DNA of 64,000 nucleotides from Vulcanimicrobiota bacterium (GCA_963723515.1 CAVRQT010000003.1:736001-800000); one strand, 5' to 3'. Counted from the first letter of the stretch, positions 1 to 9,258 are shown. Made by a program: numbers and translations. Notes: generated from the sequence alone by a model not told the origin.

Positions 1-2078
<2,078 letters not shown>

Positions 2079-2245
2079 ACTTTTTGAAATTGCATCACTT
2101 GCGCTGCGGAAAACAACGCAAATGACCGCTTCACGTGTCCGAAGACACATGAAAGTTCTTCTCTATGCAGTTTTCAATGATCGCAAGGAACCGTGCCGAT
2201 TGCTCACGTCAGATATGCGCGAAGCATCCTGAACGTGCCGGCGGC

Positions 2246-2277
2246 CCGTTCCCTCAAAACTGAACAGTACAGCAGTA
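2246..2277 (-). promoter_or_regulatory. 16S processing-stem 3' arm, pairing with the boxA-containing leader arm at ~4151-4178
   Basis: Minus-strand TACTGCTGTACTGTTCAGTTTTGAGGGAAC is complementary to leader GTTCCTTGAAAACTGAACAGTGCAGTAG; a second boxA-like GATCATTGAAAACTG lies at ~2168-2182. Confidence 0.75.
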
Positions 2278-2330
2278 TATCGCCATTGCGCTCAACCATA
2301 CGCTCGAATCGAGCGATAGATCCCTGCGCG

Positions 2331-2352
2331 CTTCGACAAGCTCAGCGTGACA
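2331..2352. repeat. Dispersed 22-bp REP-like repeat, copy 1 (in rRNA ITS)
   Basis: CTTCGACAAGCTCAGCGTGACA; its reverse complement is 21/22 identical to 13869-13890. Confidence 0.75.
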
Positions 2353-2461
2353 ATCACGCTGCGTGCCCATCGGCAAGCGTTTTCGAATGGCATCGTCTGT
2401 GGTCGACTTTAAGAATGTACGCTATTGCATTTACGCTCGGCGCAAATCAATAGCACGTACT

Positions 2462-3970
<1,509 letters not shown>

Positions 3971-4265
3971 ACATTTTTTATGGAGCCGTTGTTGGCTCTA
4001 TAAACTTGTACGATCGAACTCGCTGTTGTGATGAACCGGTGGAGCCGGAGCTCACTTCGAATTCGATTTAAAAAATCTCACTGAACAAAAAGAAAAAACG
4101 CCTTTACGGCGCTTGCGTCTTTTTGGTCGGGAGACCCACAGACTTATGCGCTACTGCACTGTTCAGTTTTCAAGGAACGAACGATTGGCCCCGACCACGT
4201 CGACCGACCTACAAGCTTTAAGAGTTGAGGACGGTGGGCGCATTGGCTCCAGAGTCACGACGACC

Positions 4266-4294
4266 AGTATATAGGAGCGCCCTAGGGGCGTCAA
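4266..4294 (-). promoter_or_regulatory. rRNA operon sigma70-type promoter
   Basis: TTGACG-N17-TATACT on the minus strand ~300 nt upstream of 16S. Confidence 0.85.
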
Positions 4295-4342
4295 GGTAAC
4301 GCGACACGCGTCCTTGTGGAGAAACGCTCGCGCGATCGCCCT

Positions 4343-4930
4343 TTATAACCCGGCGGCGGTCTCCGTCGTTGCGGTGCGGCGCCGGCGCCGTTGCGCCTTT
4401 GCGCGGTTGCCGCATACGGCCATGTCACACCATGCGCCGGACCCATTTTTCGAGTGATCGTAAAACGCCCAAAGGCAGGTGTGTTGCCGGCACGCTTTCA
4501 ACCGGCGCCACGTTCCGGTGCGAAGCGCATCATAGATGGCGGCCAAGAGCCGTCCCATCGCCTGCTGTTCGCCCGAGCCGCTCGCGGCTAGCGAAGCATC
4601 CCCCGGTGTTGGGCCTAAACACATGCGTAACGGCACATGCTGTCCGAGCGCCCGGACCTGCTCCCAGCCGGCGGCCGGATCGGCTTCGCCCGTGTGGGAG
4701 AGCAGCGCGGTCCGAAGCGCTTCACGAAATTCACGCAAGCGCCCCGTGGCTGAGGGGTCAAGCGGCGCGGTTTCCTCTAGTAGGTCGTTGTCTCGCAGCC
4801 AAGCAGTCGCCGTTTCCGGCGTTGCAAGGTGATCTTCGGGTTCGTCTGTGTGGCCTGAGTTGACGAACCGGCGGACGCGCTCGAGTTCTCCCGGCGCGGT
4901 GGCATCCTTAACGCCCATCGTTGTGTGCAT
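4343..4930 (-). CDS. CGNR zinc finger (ABATE + zf-CGNR) putative transcriptional regulator; real start possibly ATG 4918
   Basis: N-terminal RRFVNS and C-terminal CRQHTCLWAFYDHSKNGSGAWCDMAVCGNRAKAQR. Confidence 0.92.
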   Translation of the reverse strand: MHTTMGVKDATAPGELERVRRFVNSGHTDEPEDHLATPETATAWLRDNDLLEETAPLDPSATGRLREFREALRTALLSHTGEADPAAGWEQVRALGQHVPLRMCLGPTPGDASLAASGSGEQQAMGRLLAAIYDALRTGTWRRLKACRQHTCLWAFYDHSKNGSGAWCDMAVCGNRAKAQRRRRRTATTETAAGL

Positions 4931-4959
4931 ACTATAGCACCACTAAAGCGTGTTGACAA
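4931..4959 (-). promoter_or_regulatory. Promoter of the CGNR gene
   Basis: TTGTCA(4959-4954)-N17-TATAGT(4936-4931). Confidence 0.65.
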
Positions 4960-4981
4960 GTTACTCTAACTACCGTACAAT
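4953..4981 (+). promoter_or_regulatory. Promoter of microprotein 1
   Basis: TTGACA-N17-TACAAT. Confidence 0.8.
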
Positions 4982-5019
4982 CTTAAGTGGTTACTGACAA
5001 AATACATAGAAAGGTTAAA

Positions 5020-5157
5020 ATGATGGCAGACCCTCGTCCAACAATCCCTCTCGTGCCCGAGCTGATCGACATCACCCGACGCATCCCGGGCCACGGTGCC
5101 GACGATGCGCTCTTCGGTGGCTGGGGCGTGCGGTTGCCCTTCGCGATCCCGCGCTAA
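5020..5157 (+). CDS. Microprotein 1, 45 aa (MMADPRPTIPLVPELIDITRRIPGHGADDALFGGWGVRLPFAIPR)
   Basis: SD-like AGAAAGG upstream, own promoter, paralog of 5254-5382 with mostly synonymous differences in the conserved blocks. Confidence 0.85.
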   Translation: MMADPRPTIPLVPELIDITRRIPGHGADDALFGGWGVRLPFAIPR

Positions 5158-5170
5158 GGGGCGAAGGGAG

Positions 5171-5235
5171 CTACTCTTAAACAATTAGTTGACAATCAGC
5201 TATGGCGCCCCTATACTGCTCTTAAAGAATTAGTT
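5171..5235 (+). promoter_or_regulatory. Promoter of microprotein 2 flanked by 20-bp direct repeats
   Basis: TTGACA(5189-5194)-N17-TATACT(5212-5217); CT(A/G)CTCTTAAA(C/G)AATTAGTT at 5171-5190 and 5216-5235. Confidence 0.8.
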
Positions 5236-5253
5236 TTAATAAAGGAGTGCGCC

Positions 5254-5382
5254 ATGGTTGATCCCCGCCCGACGATTCCCTTAGCGTTGCAAGCAATCCA
5301 TCGCCGGCACATTATCCCGCCGGCTGACGATGCGTTGTTCCGCGGGTGGGGCGTGCGCTCGCTCTTCTCGATCGGTCGTTAG
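5254..5382 (+). CDS. Microprotein 2, 42 aa (MVDPRPTIPLALQAIHRRHIIPPADDALFRGWGVRSLFSIGR)
   Basis: SD AAAGGAG, own promoter, downstream terminator, paralog of microprotein 1. Confidence 0.85.
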   Translation: MVDPRPTIPLALQAIHRRHIIPPADDALFRGWGVRSLFSIGR

Positions 5383-5397
5383 ATCACAGAACGCGTC

Positions 5398-5448
5398 AAG
5401 GCGTGCCCGGCAGCAGCTTATGGGCAGTTGCAGCCGGCACGCCTTTTT
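5398..5448 (+). terminator. Intrinsic terminator after the microproteins (between convergent genes)
   Basis: AAGGCGTGCC...GGCACGCCTT stem followed by a T-run. Confidence 0.8.
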
Positions 5449-5466
5449 GATTAGCTAACGTAGATC

Positions 5467-7071
5467 TCAGAATCCCTCGGCCTCTTCACCGGCGTCTTTG
5501 GCGCTCACTTTGGCTGCAACCGTCTTGGCTTGTAAGAAGAGTAAGAGGTAATCGTGACTCCCGGCTTTTGAATCCGTTCCCGACATGTTGAATCCGCCGA
5601 ACGGATGAGCTCCCACCATTGCGCCCGTACACTTCCGATTGAGATACAGATTGCCGACGAAGAACTCATCGCGCGCACGTTCGAGCTTGCGCGGGTCTTT
5701 CGAGTAAACCGACCCCGTTAGGCCGTATTCAGTGTTGTTTGCGATCCGCAGCGCATCATCAAAATCTTTGGCCTTAATCACCGCAAGCACCGGGCCGAAG
5801 ATCTCTTGTTGTGCGATCGTCGCATCGGGCGCCACATCCGCGATCACGGTCGGCTCGATGAAGTACCCAGCACCGCCGCTGCGGCGTCCGCCGGTCAGCA
5901 AGCGCCCTTCTTTTTGGCCGATCTCGATGTAGCGGCCGATCGAGGTCGCTGCGTTCTCATTGATGACCGGCCCCATGTAATTCTTTTGCTCGACCGGATC
6001 GCCGACTTGAATTTTACCGACACGATCCTGTAAGCGCGAAACGAATTCATCGTAGATCTTCTCGTCAACGATGGCGCGCGAGCACGCCGAACACTTCTGG
6101 CCTTGAAATCCAAAAGCGGAAACGGTGACGCCTTCGACTGCGGCGTCGAGATCCGCGTCGGCCGCAACGACGATCGAATCTTTGCCGCCCATCTCGGCGA
6201 CGACGCGTTTGATCCATTTCTGTCCCGGTTGCGGCTTCGCCGCCAGCTCGTTGATCCGCAAGCCAACTTCCTTCGAACCGGTAAAGGAAATGAAGCGCGT
6301 CTTCGGGTTTGTGACCAGCGCATCACCGATTGTCGAGCCCGAGCCGGGCAAGAAGTTTAAGACGCCTTGCGGCAATCCCACTTCTTCAAGCAAGTCGACA
6401 AAACGAGCCGCAATGACGGCTGAATCGCTCGAAGGCTTGAGCACGACGGTGTTGCCGGCAACGACAGCTGCAGTCGTCGTTCCCGCCATGATTGCAAACG
6501 CAAAGTTCCACGGCGGGATCACTACGCCGACGCCAAGCGGGATGTAGCGCAACTCGTTCTCTTCGCCGGCGATCGGCTCGACCGGATGTGGGCCGTCGTA
6601 GCGCAGCGCTTCGCGCGCGTAAAATTCCAGAAAGTCGATCGCTTCAGCCGTGTCGCCATCGGCTTCGGGCCACGTCTTGCCAACTTCGTACACGAGCAAC
6701 GCGTCGAATTCGAAGCGGCGTTCGCGAATGCGCTGGGCGGCTTTGAGCAGATAGCTTGCGCGCTCCGAAGCGCTGACATTCTTCCACGTTTCAAACCGGC
6801 GGGCTGCCGCGTCGATCGCGCGATTCGCCTGCTCGAGTGCCGCCGAAGCGACCAGTCCAACAACTTCCTGCGGATTGGCCGGATTGATCGACTTGATCCA
6901 GCGCTCTGTTTCTTCACGCCGGCCGTCAATGACGAGCGGATATTTCTTTCCAAAATTGCGCTTAACCGCCGCAAGGGCGCCTTCCATGGCGGCGACGTCG
7001 GCGGGATCGCTGAAGTCCTTGACCAGTTCGTTTTTGAACGGTGCGAGTGTTTTTTCCAGTGTTGCAGCCAT
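5467..7071 (-). CDS. pruA: 1-pyrroline-5-carboxylate (L-glutamate gamma-semialdehyde) dehydrogenase, RocA/PruA type
   Basis: PPWNF, FTGSKEVG, EMGGKD, FGFQGQKCSACSR, GNLYLNRKCTGAMVG, PFGGFNMSGTDSKAG. Confidence 0.93.
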   Translation of the reverse strand: MAATLEKTLAPFKNELVKDFSDPADVAAMEGALAAVKRNFGKKYPLVIDGRREETERWIKSINPANPQEVVGLVASAALEQANRAIDAAARRFETWKNVSASERASYLLKAAQRIRERRFEFDALLVYEVGKTWPEADGDTAEAIDFLEFYAREALRYDGPHPVEPIAGEENELRYIPLGVGVVIPPWNFAFAIMAGTTTAAVVAGNTVVLKPSSDSAVIAARFVDLLEEVGLPQGVLNFLPGSGSTIGDALVTNPKTRFISFTGSKEVGLRINELAAKPQPGQKWIKRVVAEMGGKDSIVVAADADLDAAVEGVTVSAFGFQGQKCSACSRAIVDEKIYDEFVSRLQDRVGKIQVGDPVEQKNYMGPVINENAATSIGRYIEIGQKEGRLLTGGRRSGGAGYFIEPTVIADVAPDATIAQQEIFGPVLAVIKAKDFDDALRIANNTEYGLTGSVYSKDPRKLERARDEFFVGNLYLNRKCTGAMVGAHPFGGFNMSGTDSKAGSHDYLLLFLQAKTVAAKVSAKDAGEEAEGF

Positions 7072-7159
7072 GCGTTAGACTGCGCTCAGAAATCCGGCAG
7101 TCCTTTCTTCCGCCCAAGCTTCGCCTCGGCGGGCTCAGGCGGTGATGCTTATTATTAGC

Positions 7160-7188
7160 GAAGAGGGCCGCTTCTTGCGGCCCTCTTC
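7160..7188. terminator. 12-bp perfect hairpin downstream of rplQ (probable terminator)
   Basis: GAAGAGGGCCGC-TTCTT-GCGGCCCTCTTC; only a weak U-tract on the minus strand. Confidence 0.6.
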
Positions 7189-7220
7189 CTTATTTTGCGG
7201 CGCGAGCGATTGCGCTGTGG

Positions 7221-7574
7221 CTAGCGGACGAGTTCTAAGACCGAAAGTTCTGCAGCGTCGCCGGGGCGCACGCGTGACTTTGTTATGCGCGTGTAACCGC
7301 CGCTGCGGTCTTTCAAACTGGGCGCAATTTGTTCGCATAGCTTGCTGACGACTTTCGGTTCGGTCAGGTATTCAGCAACTTGGCGCCGGGACTGTAAGTC
7401 GCCGCGAGCAGCCGTCGTGATCAGCCTGTCGGCGACTTTGCTAATCTCCTTCGCTTTCGCGGTCGTCGTCTCGATCTTTTCGTGCTTGAAGAACGCCGTC
7501 GCAAGATTACGCAACATCGAGCGACGATGGCCGTCCGTACGTGAAAGGCGCCTCTGTGAGATTTGATGCGGCAT
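7221..7574 (-). CDS. rplQ: 50S ribosomal protein L17
   Basis: HRRSMLRNLA, IETTTAKAKE, RSGGYTRI. Confidence 0.97.
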   Translation of the reverse strand: MPHQISQRRLSRTDGHRRSMLRNLATAFFKHEKIETTTAKAKEISKVADRLITTAARGDLQSRRQVAEYLTEPKVVSKLCEQIAPSLKDRSGGYTRITKSRVRPGDAAELSVLELVR

Positions 7575-7585
7575 AATATTCGGCG

Positions 7586-8512
7586 CTACGACTGCCGGAG
7601 GGAGAGTCCCCGCTCCTCGAGGACTTGCTTTATCTCGTCGAGCGATTTCTTCCCGAAGTTGCGCATTTCGATGATCTCGTCTTCCGACATGTCAAGCAAT
7701 TCAGAGACTTTCGAGATGCCGGCACGCTTCAGACAGTTAAACGACCGAACGGAGAGGTTGAGCGTTTCAACCGGCACGTCCCACTCGCTGACGGGCGCCG
7801 GTTGAGCAGGCTTCTCTTCGGTGCTGAAGCTTACGAAGAGATCCAGTTGCTCTTGAACGATTCGAGCGCCAATCGAGAGCGCTTCATCCGGGGTGATCGA
7901 GCCATTTGTTTCGATTTCAAGCGTGAGGCGATCGAAGTCGACGTTTTGTCCGACGCGCGTGTCGTCGACCGTGAAATTGACTTTGCGAATCGGCGAGAAG
8001 ATCGAATCAAGCGGAATGAGACCGATCATGTGCTCGACGTTGCGCTGACGATCCGCCGTGACGTAGCCGCGATGCTTTTCGACGCCGATTTCCATCGAAA
8101 GCCTTGCCCCTTTCGAACTCAAGGTGGCGATGTGGTAATCAGGATCCAAGATCTCCACGTCGGCGTCAGGCGTGACGTCCGCCGCAGTGACTTCTTTGGG
8201 CCCGGTTGCAGACAACGAAAGCACCTTGGGCTCGTCGGTGTTCATTTTCACCGGCAAGCCTTTGAGGTTGAGCATCAGATTGGTCGTGTCTTCGACGACT
8301 CCCGGAATCGTTGAGAACTCGTGCAGCACGCCATCGATTTTCATGTACGTCACTGCCGAGCCCGGAATCGAGCTGAGCAGAACGCGGCGCAGCGCATTGC
8401 CGAGCGTTATTCCGAAGCCGCGTTCCAGCGGTTCGATGATGAATTTGGCATAGTTGTCGCGGCGCTCCCGAATTTCAATTTCGGCGCCTTGCGGTGTCTC
8501 TAATACGGTCAT
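7586..8512 (-). CDS. rpoA: RNA polymerase alpha subunit
   Basis: EPLERGFGITLGNALRRVLLSS; LSVRSFNCLKRAGI. Confidence 0.99.
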   Translation of the reverse strand: MTVLETPQGAEIEIRERRDNYAKFIIEPLERGFGITLGNALRRVLLSSIPGSAVTYMKIDGVLHEFSTIPGVVEDTTNLMLNLKGLPVKMNTDEPKVLSLSATGPKEVTAADVTPDADVEILDPDYHIATLSSKGARLSMEIGVEKHRGYVTADRQRNVEHMIGLIPLDSIFSPIRKVNFTVDDTRVGQNVDFDRLTLEIETNGSITPDEALSIGARIVQEQLDLFVSFSTEEKPAQPAPVSEWDVPVETLNLSVRSFNCLKRAGISKVSELLDMSEDEIIEMRNFGKKSLDEIKQVLEERGLSLRQS

Positions 8513-8601
8513 TGTTTTTCTATAAGTCCTTTGCTGCTCAAGTTATCCGCGGGCATCCCCGATGCCGCACGATCGTACTCCCAGCAGCGGCGTGAAGTGG
8601 T

Positions 8602-9258
8602 TTACCGCGAGTAGTATTCGACGATCAGTTGTTCCTCGACCGGAGTGTCGATCTGCTCGCGTGACGGCAGCTGCAGCACTTTGGCTGAGCTGTCTTGATC
8701 GTTGAATTCAAGCCATTCGGGTGCACGACGGCTGCGTGCGACTTCGAGGTTGGCTTGAAAGACATTGGACTTGTGAGAGCGGTCGCCGATCGTGATGACG
8801 TCGCCCGGCCTCACCATGTAGGACGGAACGTTCACGATGCGCCCATTGACTCTGAAGTGGCGATGCGTAACGAGTTGTCGCGCTTGGGCGCGGCTCGTCG
8901 CCAAATTCAGACGGTAAACGACGTTGTCGAGGCGCCGTTCCAGGAGTTGCAAGAACGTTCTGCCGGTTTGTCCCGGCACGCGTGCCGCTTCCTGAAAGTA
9001 GTTTTCGAATTGGCGTTCGATGACGCCGTAGTAGCGGCGCATCTTCTGCTTCTCGCGCAACTGGCGACCGAATTCCGAGGTCTTCTGGCGCGACTTGCCT
9101 TGCGTCTTCTGCCCCGGCGCTGTGCCGCGACGCTCGACCGCGCACTTTTTCGTTAGGCAACGGTCGCCTTTGAGAAACAGTTTGATCTTCTCGCCCGTTT
9201 TGCTCGCTGCAGTTTCGCGGCGGCACATGCGGCAGACCGGACCAACGTAGCGCGACAT
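8602..9258 (-). CDS. rpsD: 30S ribosomal protein S4 (Cys/Zn-type)
   Basis: [25 protein letters not shown]. Confidence 0.99.

Follow-up and report, generated by a model that had tools for sequence, protein, structure and literature searches.

This analysis concerns a 64,000-nucleotide stretch of DNA from a Vulcanimicrobiota bacterium (GCA_963723515.1, CAVRQT010000003.1:736001-800000), which we call the window, and within it positions 4931 to 5448, where two short paralogous open reading frames (ORF1 and ORF2, also called copy 1 and copy 2) lie divergent from the gene for a CGNR zinc-finger regulator. A regulator gene and its putative target, divergently transcribed, form a local module here; the target gene encodes an undescribed microprotein, and a duplicate of it appears to have been rewired to a second switch. 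The regulatory architecture, as deduced from comparison of sequences, is well supported. With regard to function, we think it fairly probable that the product is a trans-acting, disordered stress microprotein which serves as the dedicated output of the CGNR regulator and which was duplicated here and brought under a second, BlaI-type switch. Several other suggestions can be made, and we discuss each of them beside the evidence that bears on it.

Two microprotein genes and their family

A sequence-only reading of the window had described two paralogous ORFs of 45 and 42 amino acids, each with its own near-consensus TTGACA-N17 promoter and a Shine-Dalgarno (SD) sequence. All of these are present. 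The promoters, P1 and P2, each match at 11/12 positions, and the SD cores are AAAGG for ORF1 and AAGGAG for ORF2. ORF1 has 45 codons if it starts at the ATG at 5020 and 44 if it starts at the ATG at 5023. The second start is the more likely one: in L061 the place of the first ATG is taken by ACG, and the close homologs all start with MADPRP or MTDPRP. (L061, a contig from another organism, is the one locus returned by a narrow alignment of a named genome collection.) In BLASTP the two products are identical at 26 of 44 positions (59%, E-value 2e-13), which identifies them as paralogs.

The way in which the copies differ is informative. In the shared segment DPRPTIPL there is a synonymous difference at all eight codons, exactly as the sequence-only reading had listed them. 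Over 42 codons, the differences between the copies number 13, 13 and 25 at the first, second and third codon positions. By the NG86 method the proportions of synonymous and nonsynonymous differences (pS and pN) are 0.72 and 0.29, and the ratio of nonsynonymous to synonymous substitution rates (dN/dS), which had been proposed as a check, is about 0.15, the synonymous sites being close to saturated. Relative to the L061 orthologs dN/dS is 0.117 for ORF1 and 0.213 for ORF2, next to 0.115 for the CGNR gene. By the measure of these ratios, both copies are under purifying selection. An ortholog of ORF2 is found in L061 and among metagenome proteins (P0012 and P0031), and SD-like cores stand upstream of 40 of 43 family members against a background of 15%. 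Direct reading of the peptide sequence reveals no hydrophobic segment and no signal peptide. We take both ORFs to be genuine genes, very probably translated, whose product is a cytoplasmic microprotein of some 44 residues.

It could be argued instead that the ORFs are untranslated, that the conserved unit is a pair of small RNAs or a set of promoter and terminator elements, and that the frames are incidental. The promoters and the terminator are indeed better conserved than the coding parts in the comparison with L061. Nevertheless, divergence dominated by synonymous changes (dN/dS 0.12-0.21), a frame that persists through dozens of genera although protein identity is down to 30-40%, and the SD cores just mentioned are difficult to reconcile with this suggestion, and the Rfam matches in positions 1-9000 of the window are rRNAs only. 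We consider it extremely improbable.

The family to which the two peptides belong is widespread within one class. Of 301 genomes in the class, 159 have a six-frame match to the family profile (E<=0.01). At E<=0.001 there are matches in 154 of 401 genomes of the phylum, which all fall in family f1 (130/296) or family f3 (23/30), and none in the five genomes of f2 or in the 69 genomes of f4-f21 (other classes of the phylum). The alignment has 44 columns, is almost free of gaps, and contains three invariant residues, P10, R21 and D28. Among 1.84 billion protein cluster representatives only 31 match, and 30 of these are 34-61 amino acids long, which implies that there is no fused form and that gene callers mostly miss the family; the exception (P0030, 163 amino acids) looks like a read-through call.

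The sequence-only reading had recognised no family for these peptides and regarded the small protein as undescribed. Frame-keeping homologs occur across the class, and comparison of the peptides with Pfam, NCBIfam, PADLOC, PHROGs and the PDB gave no family match, while scores in the ESM Atlas stayed below 0.9. The sole weak Pfam match, to the PaaA2-type antitoxin family PF21217, was rejected: it scores 11.8 bits where the cut-off is 27, has an E-value of 0.25 and covers nine residues. A literature text search with three peptide motifs found no paper. On these searches the family is undescribed and confined to one bacterial class, and the target of the module is therefore new: a 44-residue protein that is class-wide and nearly invisible to annotation.

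The CGNR module and a probable second switch for copy 2

The divergent neighbour, which the sequence-only reading had named a CGNR zinc-finger gene, is on the minus strand and has an N-terminal ABATE domain (PF07336; 1.9e-12, 48.4 bits) and a C-terminal CGNR zinc finger (PF11706; 3.5e-16, 59.1 bits), both above the gathering scores. Residues C147, C152, C168, C173, G174, N175 and K178 are invariant in an alignment of 34 CGNR sequences, so that the four zinc-binding cysteines and the C-G-N-R motif are conserved. PF11706 is matched just once genome-wide, so this is the sole CGNR gene.

Linkage of the peptide to CGNR genes in related genomes had been suggested as something to look for. We compared matches of the peptide profile with matches of a CGNR-ortholog profile by position. 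Both are listed in 125 genomes, and the distance between them is below 1.5 kb in 123 of these, all but G007 and the fragmentary G089; every one of the 125 pairs is divergent, and the median distance between matches is 102 nt. Two of the 123 genomes (G059 and G084) are unpublished, and the result is independent of them. Pfam finds ABATE plus zf-CGNR in 13 of the 18 neighbours tested, and ABATE alone in one that is cut by a contig end. Linkage to the CGNR gene is near-obligate.

The two genes share a divergent promoter region. The extended -10 promoter of the CGNR gene stands back to back with P1, and their -35 boxes overlap. P1 is identical in L061 and conserved across the class, and the region of the CGNR promoter is kept in relatives. 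In the relatives' promoters the motif (A/G)GTTAC occurs twice, once directly after TTGACA and again just past the -10. In the window GTTAC stands at 4960 and 4990, so that the two repeats begin 30 bp apart and enclose the -10. Of 31 promoters from relatives, 27 have the second [AG]GTTAC at 30-31 nt from the first, compared with 1.3% of shuffles. A profile made from these 31 promoters, this genome excluded, finds one place in the 2.1-Mb genome, which is P1 (E 1.2e-13); the next-best match has an E-value of 9.3. The simplest reading of this pattern would be a dedicated local regulator that, as far as can be seen in this genome, controls the microprotein unit and its own gene and nothing else. 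Position and conservation suggest that the regulator probably occupies the two GTTAC repeats, three helical turns apart.

Other occupants of the target slot are seen. In L087 (genome G071) the CGNR gene and the divergent GTTAC promoter are kept and the slot holds a secreted protein with a signal-peptide-like start; in L088 (genome G038, family f2) they are likewise kept, and the slot holds an unrelated ORF of about 77 amino acids.

TetR and TetA form a well-known divergent local regulator-target module. The arrangement described here is similar to it in the back-to-back genes, the overlapping promoters, the operator repeats placed on the target promoter and the autoregulation that this implies, and the universal divergence, short gap, frequent repeat pair and single genomic match reported above are all features of such a module. 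There are also differences. The regulator here is a treble-clef zinc finger rather than a helix-turn-helix protein, the operator would be a direct GTTAC pair 30-31 bp apart instead of a compact palindrome, and the target is a 44-residue protein and not a pump.

The founding structure of the family that combines ABATE with a CGNR zinc finger is Jann_2411 from Jannaschia sp., and for this family a ligand-controlled dimeric DNA-binding regulator has been proposed (PMC2954205). The CGNR neighbour here has the same two Pfam domains as Jann_2411. The part of that account available to us names no DNA site, ligand or target (PMC2954205), whereas here we can point to a specific promoter with its repeat pair and to a target gene. 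Our literature searches on ABATE/CGNR proteins found no functional study, DNA site, ligand or target. The module provides a minimal, testable case for a large family of presumed regulators: one regulator gene, one promoter with repeats at fixed spacing and one target.

Copy 2 is different. The sequence-only reading had supposed two differently regulated copies, and this view gains substance from the repeats: copy 1 has the GTTAC pair, while copy 2 has another pair that it shares with the promoter of a BlaI/BlaR1-like operon. P2 lacks GTTAC and is bracketed by direct repeats of the form CTCTTAAA(C/G)AATTAG. These are 15 bp each (CTCTTAAAnAATTAG), lie at 5174-5188 and 5219-5233, 45 bp start to start, and one overlaps the -35 while the other is just after the -10. 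In the comparison with L061 the repeats are conserved and the 17-bp spacer between -35 and -10 has entirely diverged.

Genome-wide the repeat pair occurs at three sites, including copy 2. The second site is before a Penicillinase_R gene (BlaI-like, 5e-33; C3:566573-566953) which is followed by a Peptidase_M56 gene (BlaR1-like, 2.5e-35), and the third is before the gene for a 754-amino-acid secreted DUF5916-like protein. The pattern is present in 16 of 151 family genomes; a control with the pattern reversed gave 0. At 20 loci in the family, one of them (L073) from an unpublished genome, the first gene after the pair encodes Penicillinase_R in 11 cases, a pentapeptide-repeat protein in four and a DUF5916-like protein in three. 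The other members of the regulon are secreted pentapeptide-repeat proteins and DUF5916-like proteins, and copy 2 would be a further member of the regulon of the BlaI-like repressor.

The likeness to BlaI/BlaR1 and MecI/MecR1 consists in the gene order, Penicillinase_R and then Peptidase_M56, and in the operon promoter, which carries the repeat pair of copy 2. A pair common to the repressor operon and copy 2 is what would be expected of an autoregulated repressor with extra targets. The M56 protein differs from BlaR1. It has 440 amino acids and matches positions 102-328 of 585 in BlaR1 models, that is, the protease part only. Since it is without the penicillin-sensing part of these models, the signal is probably not a beta-lactam. 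If correct, the repeat pair is a candidate operator for BlaI/BlaR1-like switches not concerned with beta-lactams, and the operator swap in a tandem duplicate is a natural example of one effector wired to two sensory systems.

In G071 a 38-amino-acid ORF (L082, 1357-1470, minus strand), ending in IFMGWGPRVPA, comes directly after a BlaI-type operator pair, with a pentapeptide-repeat gene downstream of it. It recalls the F-x-G-W-G motif of the microprotein but was not accepted as a family member, its E-value of 1.5 being non-significant.

Possible roles of the microprotein

In both families of the class, f1 and f3, many peptide ORFs have behind them a gene of about 127 codons, which starts within 0-36 nt or overlaps the peptide ORF. 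Of 15 such downstream ORFs, 14 match the Glyoxalase/VOC family PF00903, 10 of them above the gathering score, and the fifteenth encodes a GntR regulator. Among solved structures, those nearest to the VOC protein are structural-genomics entries without a name. There is no same-strand gene after the peptide in this genome, in L061 or at loci of the type seen in g47, which is the largest genus of the family and has the peptide in 69 of 73 genomes. From these stand-alone loci it follows that the microprotein must act in trans, and the lack of a downstream cistron argues against a purely cis-acting leader.

TnaC, SecM and ErmCL are leader peptides of attenuation or arrest systems, and arrest peptides, too, are conserved in sequence. 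The ORFs described here resemble them in being short and conserved, and in many relatives they directly precede a VOC-family gene or overlap its start. Could they be cis-acting leader peptides, working by attenuation or ribosome arrest? We regard this as quite improbable. Here, in L061 and at g47-type loci the ORFs stand alone; they have their own promoters, the second of which comes after ORF1, and a terminator follows ORF2. Moreover, the whole length of 44 residues is conserved and not merely a C-terminal arrest motif. As there is no terminator between ORF1 and ORF2, P1 transcripts probably also read into ORF2, and we considered a hairpin over the ORF2 start (5195-5208 with 5249-5262) as a possible block to ORF2 translation on such transcripts. 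It was rejected because the fold of the inter-ORF RNA has a z-score of -1.6 and the hairpin is not conserved in L061, which also speaks against a leader.

Another potential role would be that of precursors of ribosomally synthesized and post-translationally modified peptides (RiPPs), with maturation genes elsewhere and the VOC-fold protein perhaps as a tailoring enzyme. Small size, a conserved N-terminal segment like a leader, tandem precursor copies and ancestral co-transcription with a small enzyme would all suit such precursors. However, no maturase, protease or exporter is adjacent in the inspected loci; what lies beside the peptide gene there is the CGNR gene, pruA, a VOC gene or something unrelated. 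None of the invariant residues (P, R and D) is a Cys, Ser or Thr; both ends are conserved around a variable middle, which is the reverse of a leader with a hypervariable core; and there is no export signal. A RiPP role is very improbable.

The structure predicted for the peptide by AlphaFold2 from 38 sequences has a mean predicted local distance difference test (pLDDT) score of 61 and contains one four-residue helix, at ADDALF. On its own the peptide is thus predicted to be disordered. Peptide genes are found under three regulators: the CGNR protein, a BlaI-like repressor here, and in a GntR operon in G007. Full-length conservation, independence from a downstream gene and recruitment under three regulators favor a trans-acting output module that works by binding to something else.

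These considerations allow us to propose a mechanism. The CGNR regulator would sit on the GTTAC pair and shut off both divergent genes, and a signal sensed by its ABATE domain would release it. In the ancestral state the microprotein gene would have opened a two-gene operon whose second member encoded a small enzyme of the VOC/glyoxalase fold; in this lineage and in the largest genus it stands alone, hence the presumed action of its product in trans. Tandem duplication here would have been followed by the gain, at copy 2, of its own strong promoter flanked by a BlaI-like/BlaR1-like operator pair. The same effector would then be inducible by two independent inputs, as the shared operators suggest. 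The peptide most likely folds onto a partner protein by way of its conserved N-terminal P-x-R-x-x-P-L and central R-x(5-7)-A-D-D/S-x-L-F motifs.

The sequence-only reading had left the choice between an effector, an inhibitor and an anti-repressor. SinI, which releases SinR from DNA, is a model for the last of these. By analogy, the microprotein might be an anti-repressor or peptide ligand that binds the ABATE domain of the CGNR protein and causes it to leave DNA; copy 2, under BlaI control, would pass signals of the envelope type on to the CGNR circuit, and such a role could coexist with that of an effector. As in SinI/SinR, a very small protein is found beside a transcription factor, and one copy here is on a separate signalling input. 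The near-obligate adjacency of the CGNR gene points in the same direction, and so does the disorder predicted for the peptide alone, as for an antagonist that folds on binding. The unlinked copy in an operon with a GntR regulator is again beside a transcription factor. ABATE is proposed to bind a ligand, and the protein, in the portion of the structural account at hand, is a dimer with a deep cavity at its interface (PMC2954205).

The difficulty is that with one CGNR gene and one CGNR-type promoter the circuit would be a loop: a regulator that targets only its own antagonist would have no output, which weakens this suggestion. Unlike SinR, the CGNR protein seems to be without another target, and we see no sequence relation between peptide and regulator. 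In addition, nine copies are unlinked to any CGNR gene, and the CGNR promoter drives unrelated genes in two relatives, which suits a regulator with an exchangeable target better than a constant pair of proteins. We therefore hold the anti-repressor role to be unlikely. An effector role is favored over that of an inhibitor or anti-repressor because the CGNR-type promoter occurs once in the genome. A version in which ABATE is a peptide sensor, the microprotein is both product and inducer of a self-amplifying circuit, and copy 2 lets the membrane protease trigger it, seems to us decidedly unlikely. If it were true, it would give the ABATE/CGNR family its first ligand class, and a genetically encoded one.

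The nine extra copies, of which three were examined, deserve a further comment. All three are without the CGNR-type promoter. In G007 (L027, 1111-1689) the unlinked peptide gene is followed after 7 nt by a gene for a GntR-family regulator, and its promoter contains palindromes with ACTAGT.

Several observations weigh against a trans-acting CGNR output with a BlaI-switched duplicate. The pairing of CGNR and peptide is not absolute, since 24 genomes list a CGNR ortholog and no peptide. Eight of these were inspected: three hold divergent peptides below threshold, two keep the CGNR-type promoter before a different gene, one has a promoter remnant only and two present other contexts. G001, a genome of the same genus that is 77% complete, has neither the peptide nor the CGNR gene; our guess is that the assembly has a gap next to the rRNA operon. 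The present genome has its best VOC homolog (42% identity) 128 kb away, without a peptide, and the ancestral VOC coupling leaves open a function tied to a VOC enzyme. The putative operators of both regulators are recognized only by conservation and position, and the assignment to BlaI by co-occurrence with the promoter of the blaI-like gene. The boxes of staphylococcal BlaI and MecI and of CopY have a canonical TACA/TGTA dyad; the repeat of copy 2 is without it and differs from the staphylococcal BlaI box. Hence, what we claim is a switch that works like BlaI, not a canonical bla operator.

We add two observations on these loci. G001 contains three BlaI-type operator pairs. At about C3:613000 (L062, 1880-2180, minus strand) there is a tRNA-like gene, then about 100 nt, a copy of its own 3' end and the best VOC homolog, an arrangement that looks like an integration scar; we looked for a shared operator upstream of this VOC homolog and saw none.

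Layout of the locus

Features of the microprotein locus and its surroundings (window coordinates, except in the last row)
Feature	Position	Strand	Remarks
23S rRNA	1-2075	-	Rfam match
16S rRNA	2468-3970	-	Rfam match
ABATE + zf-CGNR regulator gene	4343..4918	-	191 aa from second ATG; frame open to 4930
Promoter of CGNR gene	4931..4959	-	TTGTCA-17-TATAGT with TG extension, 10/12
Promoter P1 (copy 1)	4953..4981	+	TTGACA-17-TACAAT, 11/12
Putative CGNR operator	4960..4994	+	direct GTTAC repeats 4960-4964 and 4990-4994; TAAC half-site 4967-4970
SD of ORF1	5010-5014	+	AAAGG core
Microprotein copy 1 (ORF1)	5023..5157	+	44 aa, MADPRPTIPLVPELIDITRRIPGHGADDALFGGWGVRLPFAIPR; alternative ATG 5020
Promoter P2 (copy 2)	5174..5233	+	TTGACA 5189-5194, TATACT 5212-5217, with bracketing direct repeats
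SD of ORF2	5242-5247	+	AAGGAG core
Microprotein copy 2 (ORF2)	5254..5382	+	42 aa, MVDPRPTIPLALQAIHRRHIIPPADDALFRGWGVRSLFSIGR
Shared intrinsic terminator-like hairpin with T-rich tail	5396..5452	+	inverted repeat and fold
L-glutamate gamma-semialdehyde (P5C) dehydrogenase, pruA	5467-7071	-	convergent; above NCBIfam cut-offs
Other two repeat-pair sites	C3:566570-567031, C2:270565-272893		loci L065, L066, L075, L085

The single terminator that the sequence-only reading had placed at the end of the unit is visible as a perfect 10-bp inverted repeat (5398-5407/5436-5445) followed by TTTGATT, just before the stop of the convergent pruA gene. The hairpin folds at -33.5 kcal/mol with a z-score of -3.7. 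A simple terminator scan of the region gave no match. From 5396 to 5447, loop included, the hairpin is almost unchanged between this genome and L061, and the flanking coding sequence has a pS of 0.49-0.53.

L061 has the same gene order: 16S end, CGNR gene, ORF1, ORF2 and pruA. The proximity of pruA had been thought a possible coincidence, and we take it to be incidental, because the pruA neighbourhood is common only to the closest relatives (L003 and L061) and the slot is occupied by an RNA methyltransferase gene in L009.

Four promoter-like sites occur in the region, where shuffles lead one to expect 0.3. One of them, at 4994-5021, overlaps a start codon and was discarded as due to chance. 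Where the CGNR gene begins (window 4916-4936), the first ATG directly adjoins the -10 hexamer, and a start at 4918 would leave a 5' leader of only about 5-7 nt. The gene probably starts at this second ATG, given that contact and the alignment with the L061 ortholog, whose start corresponds to it.

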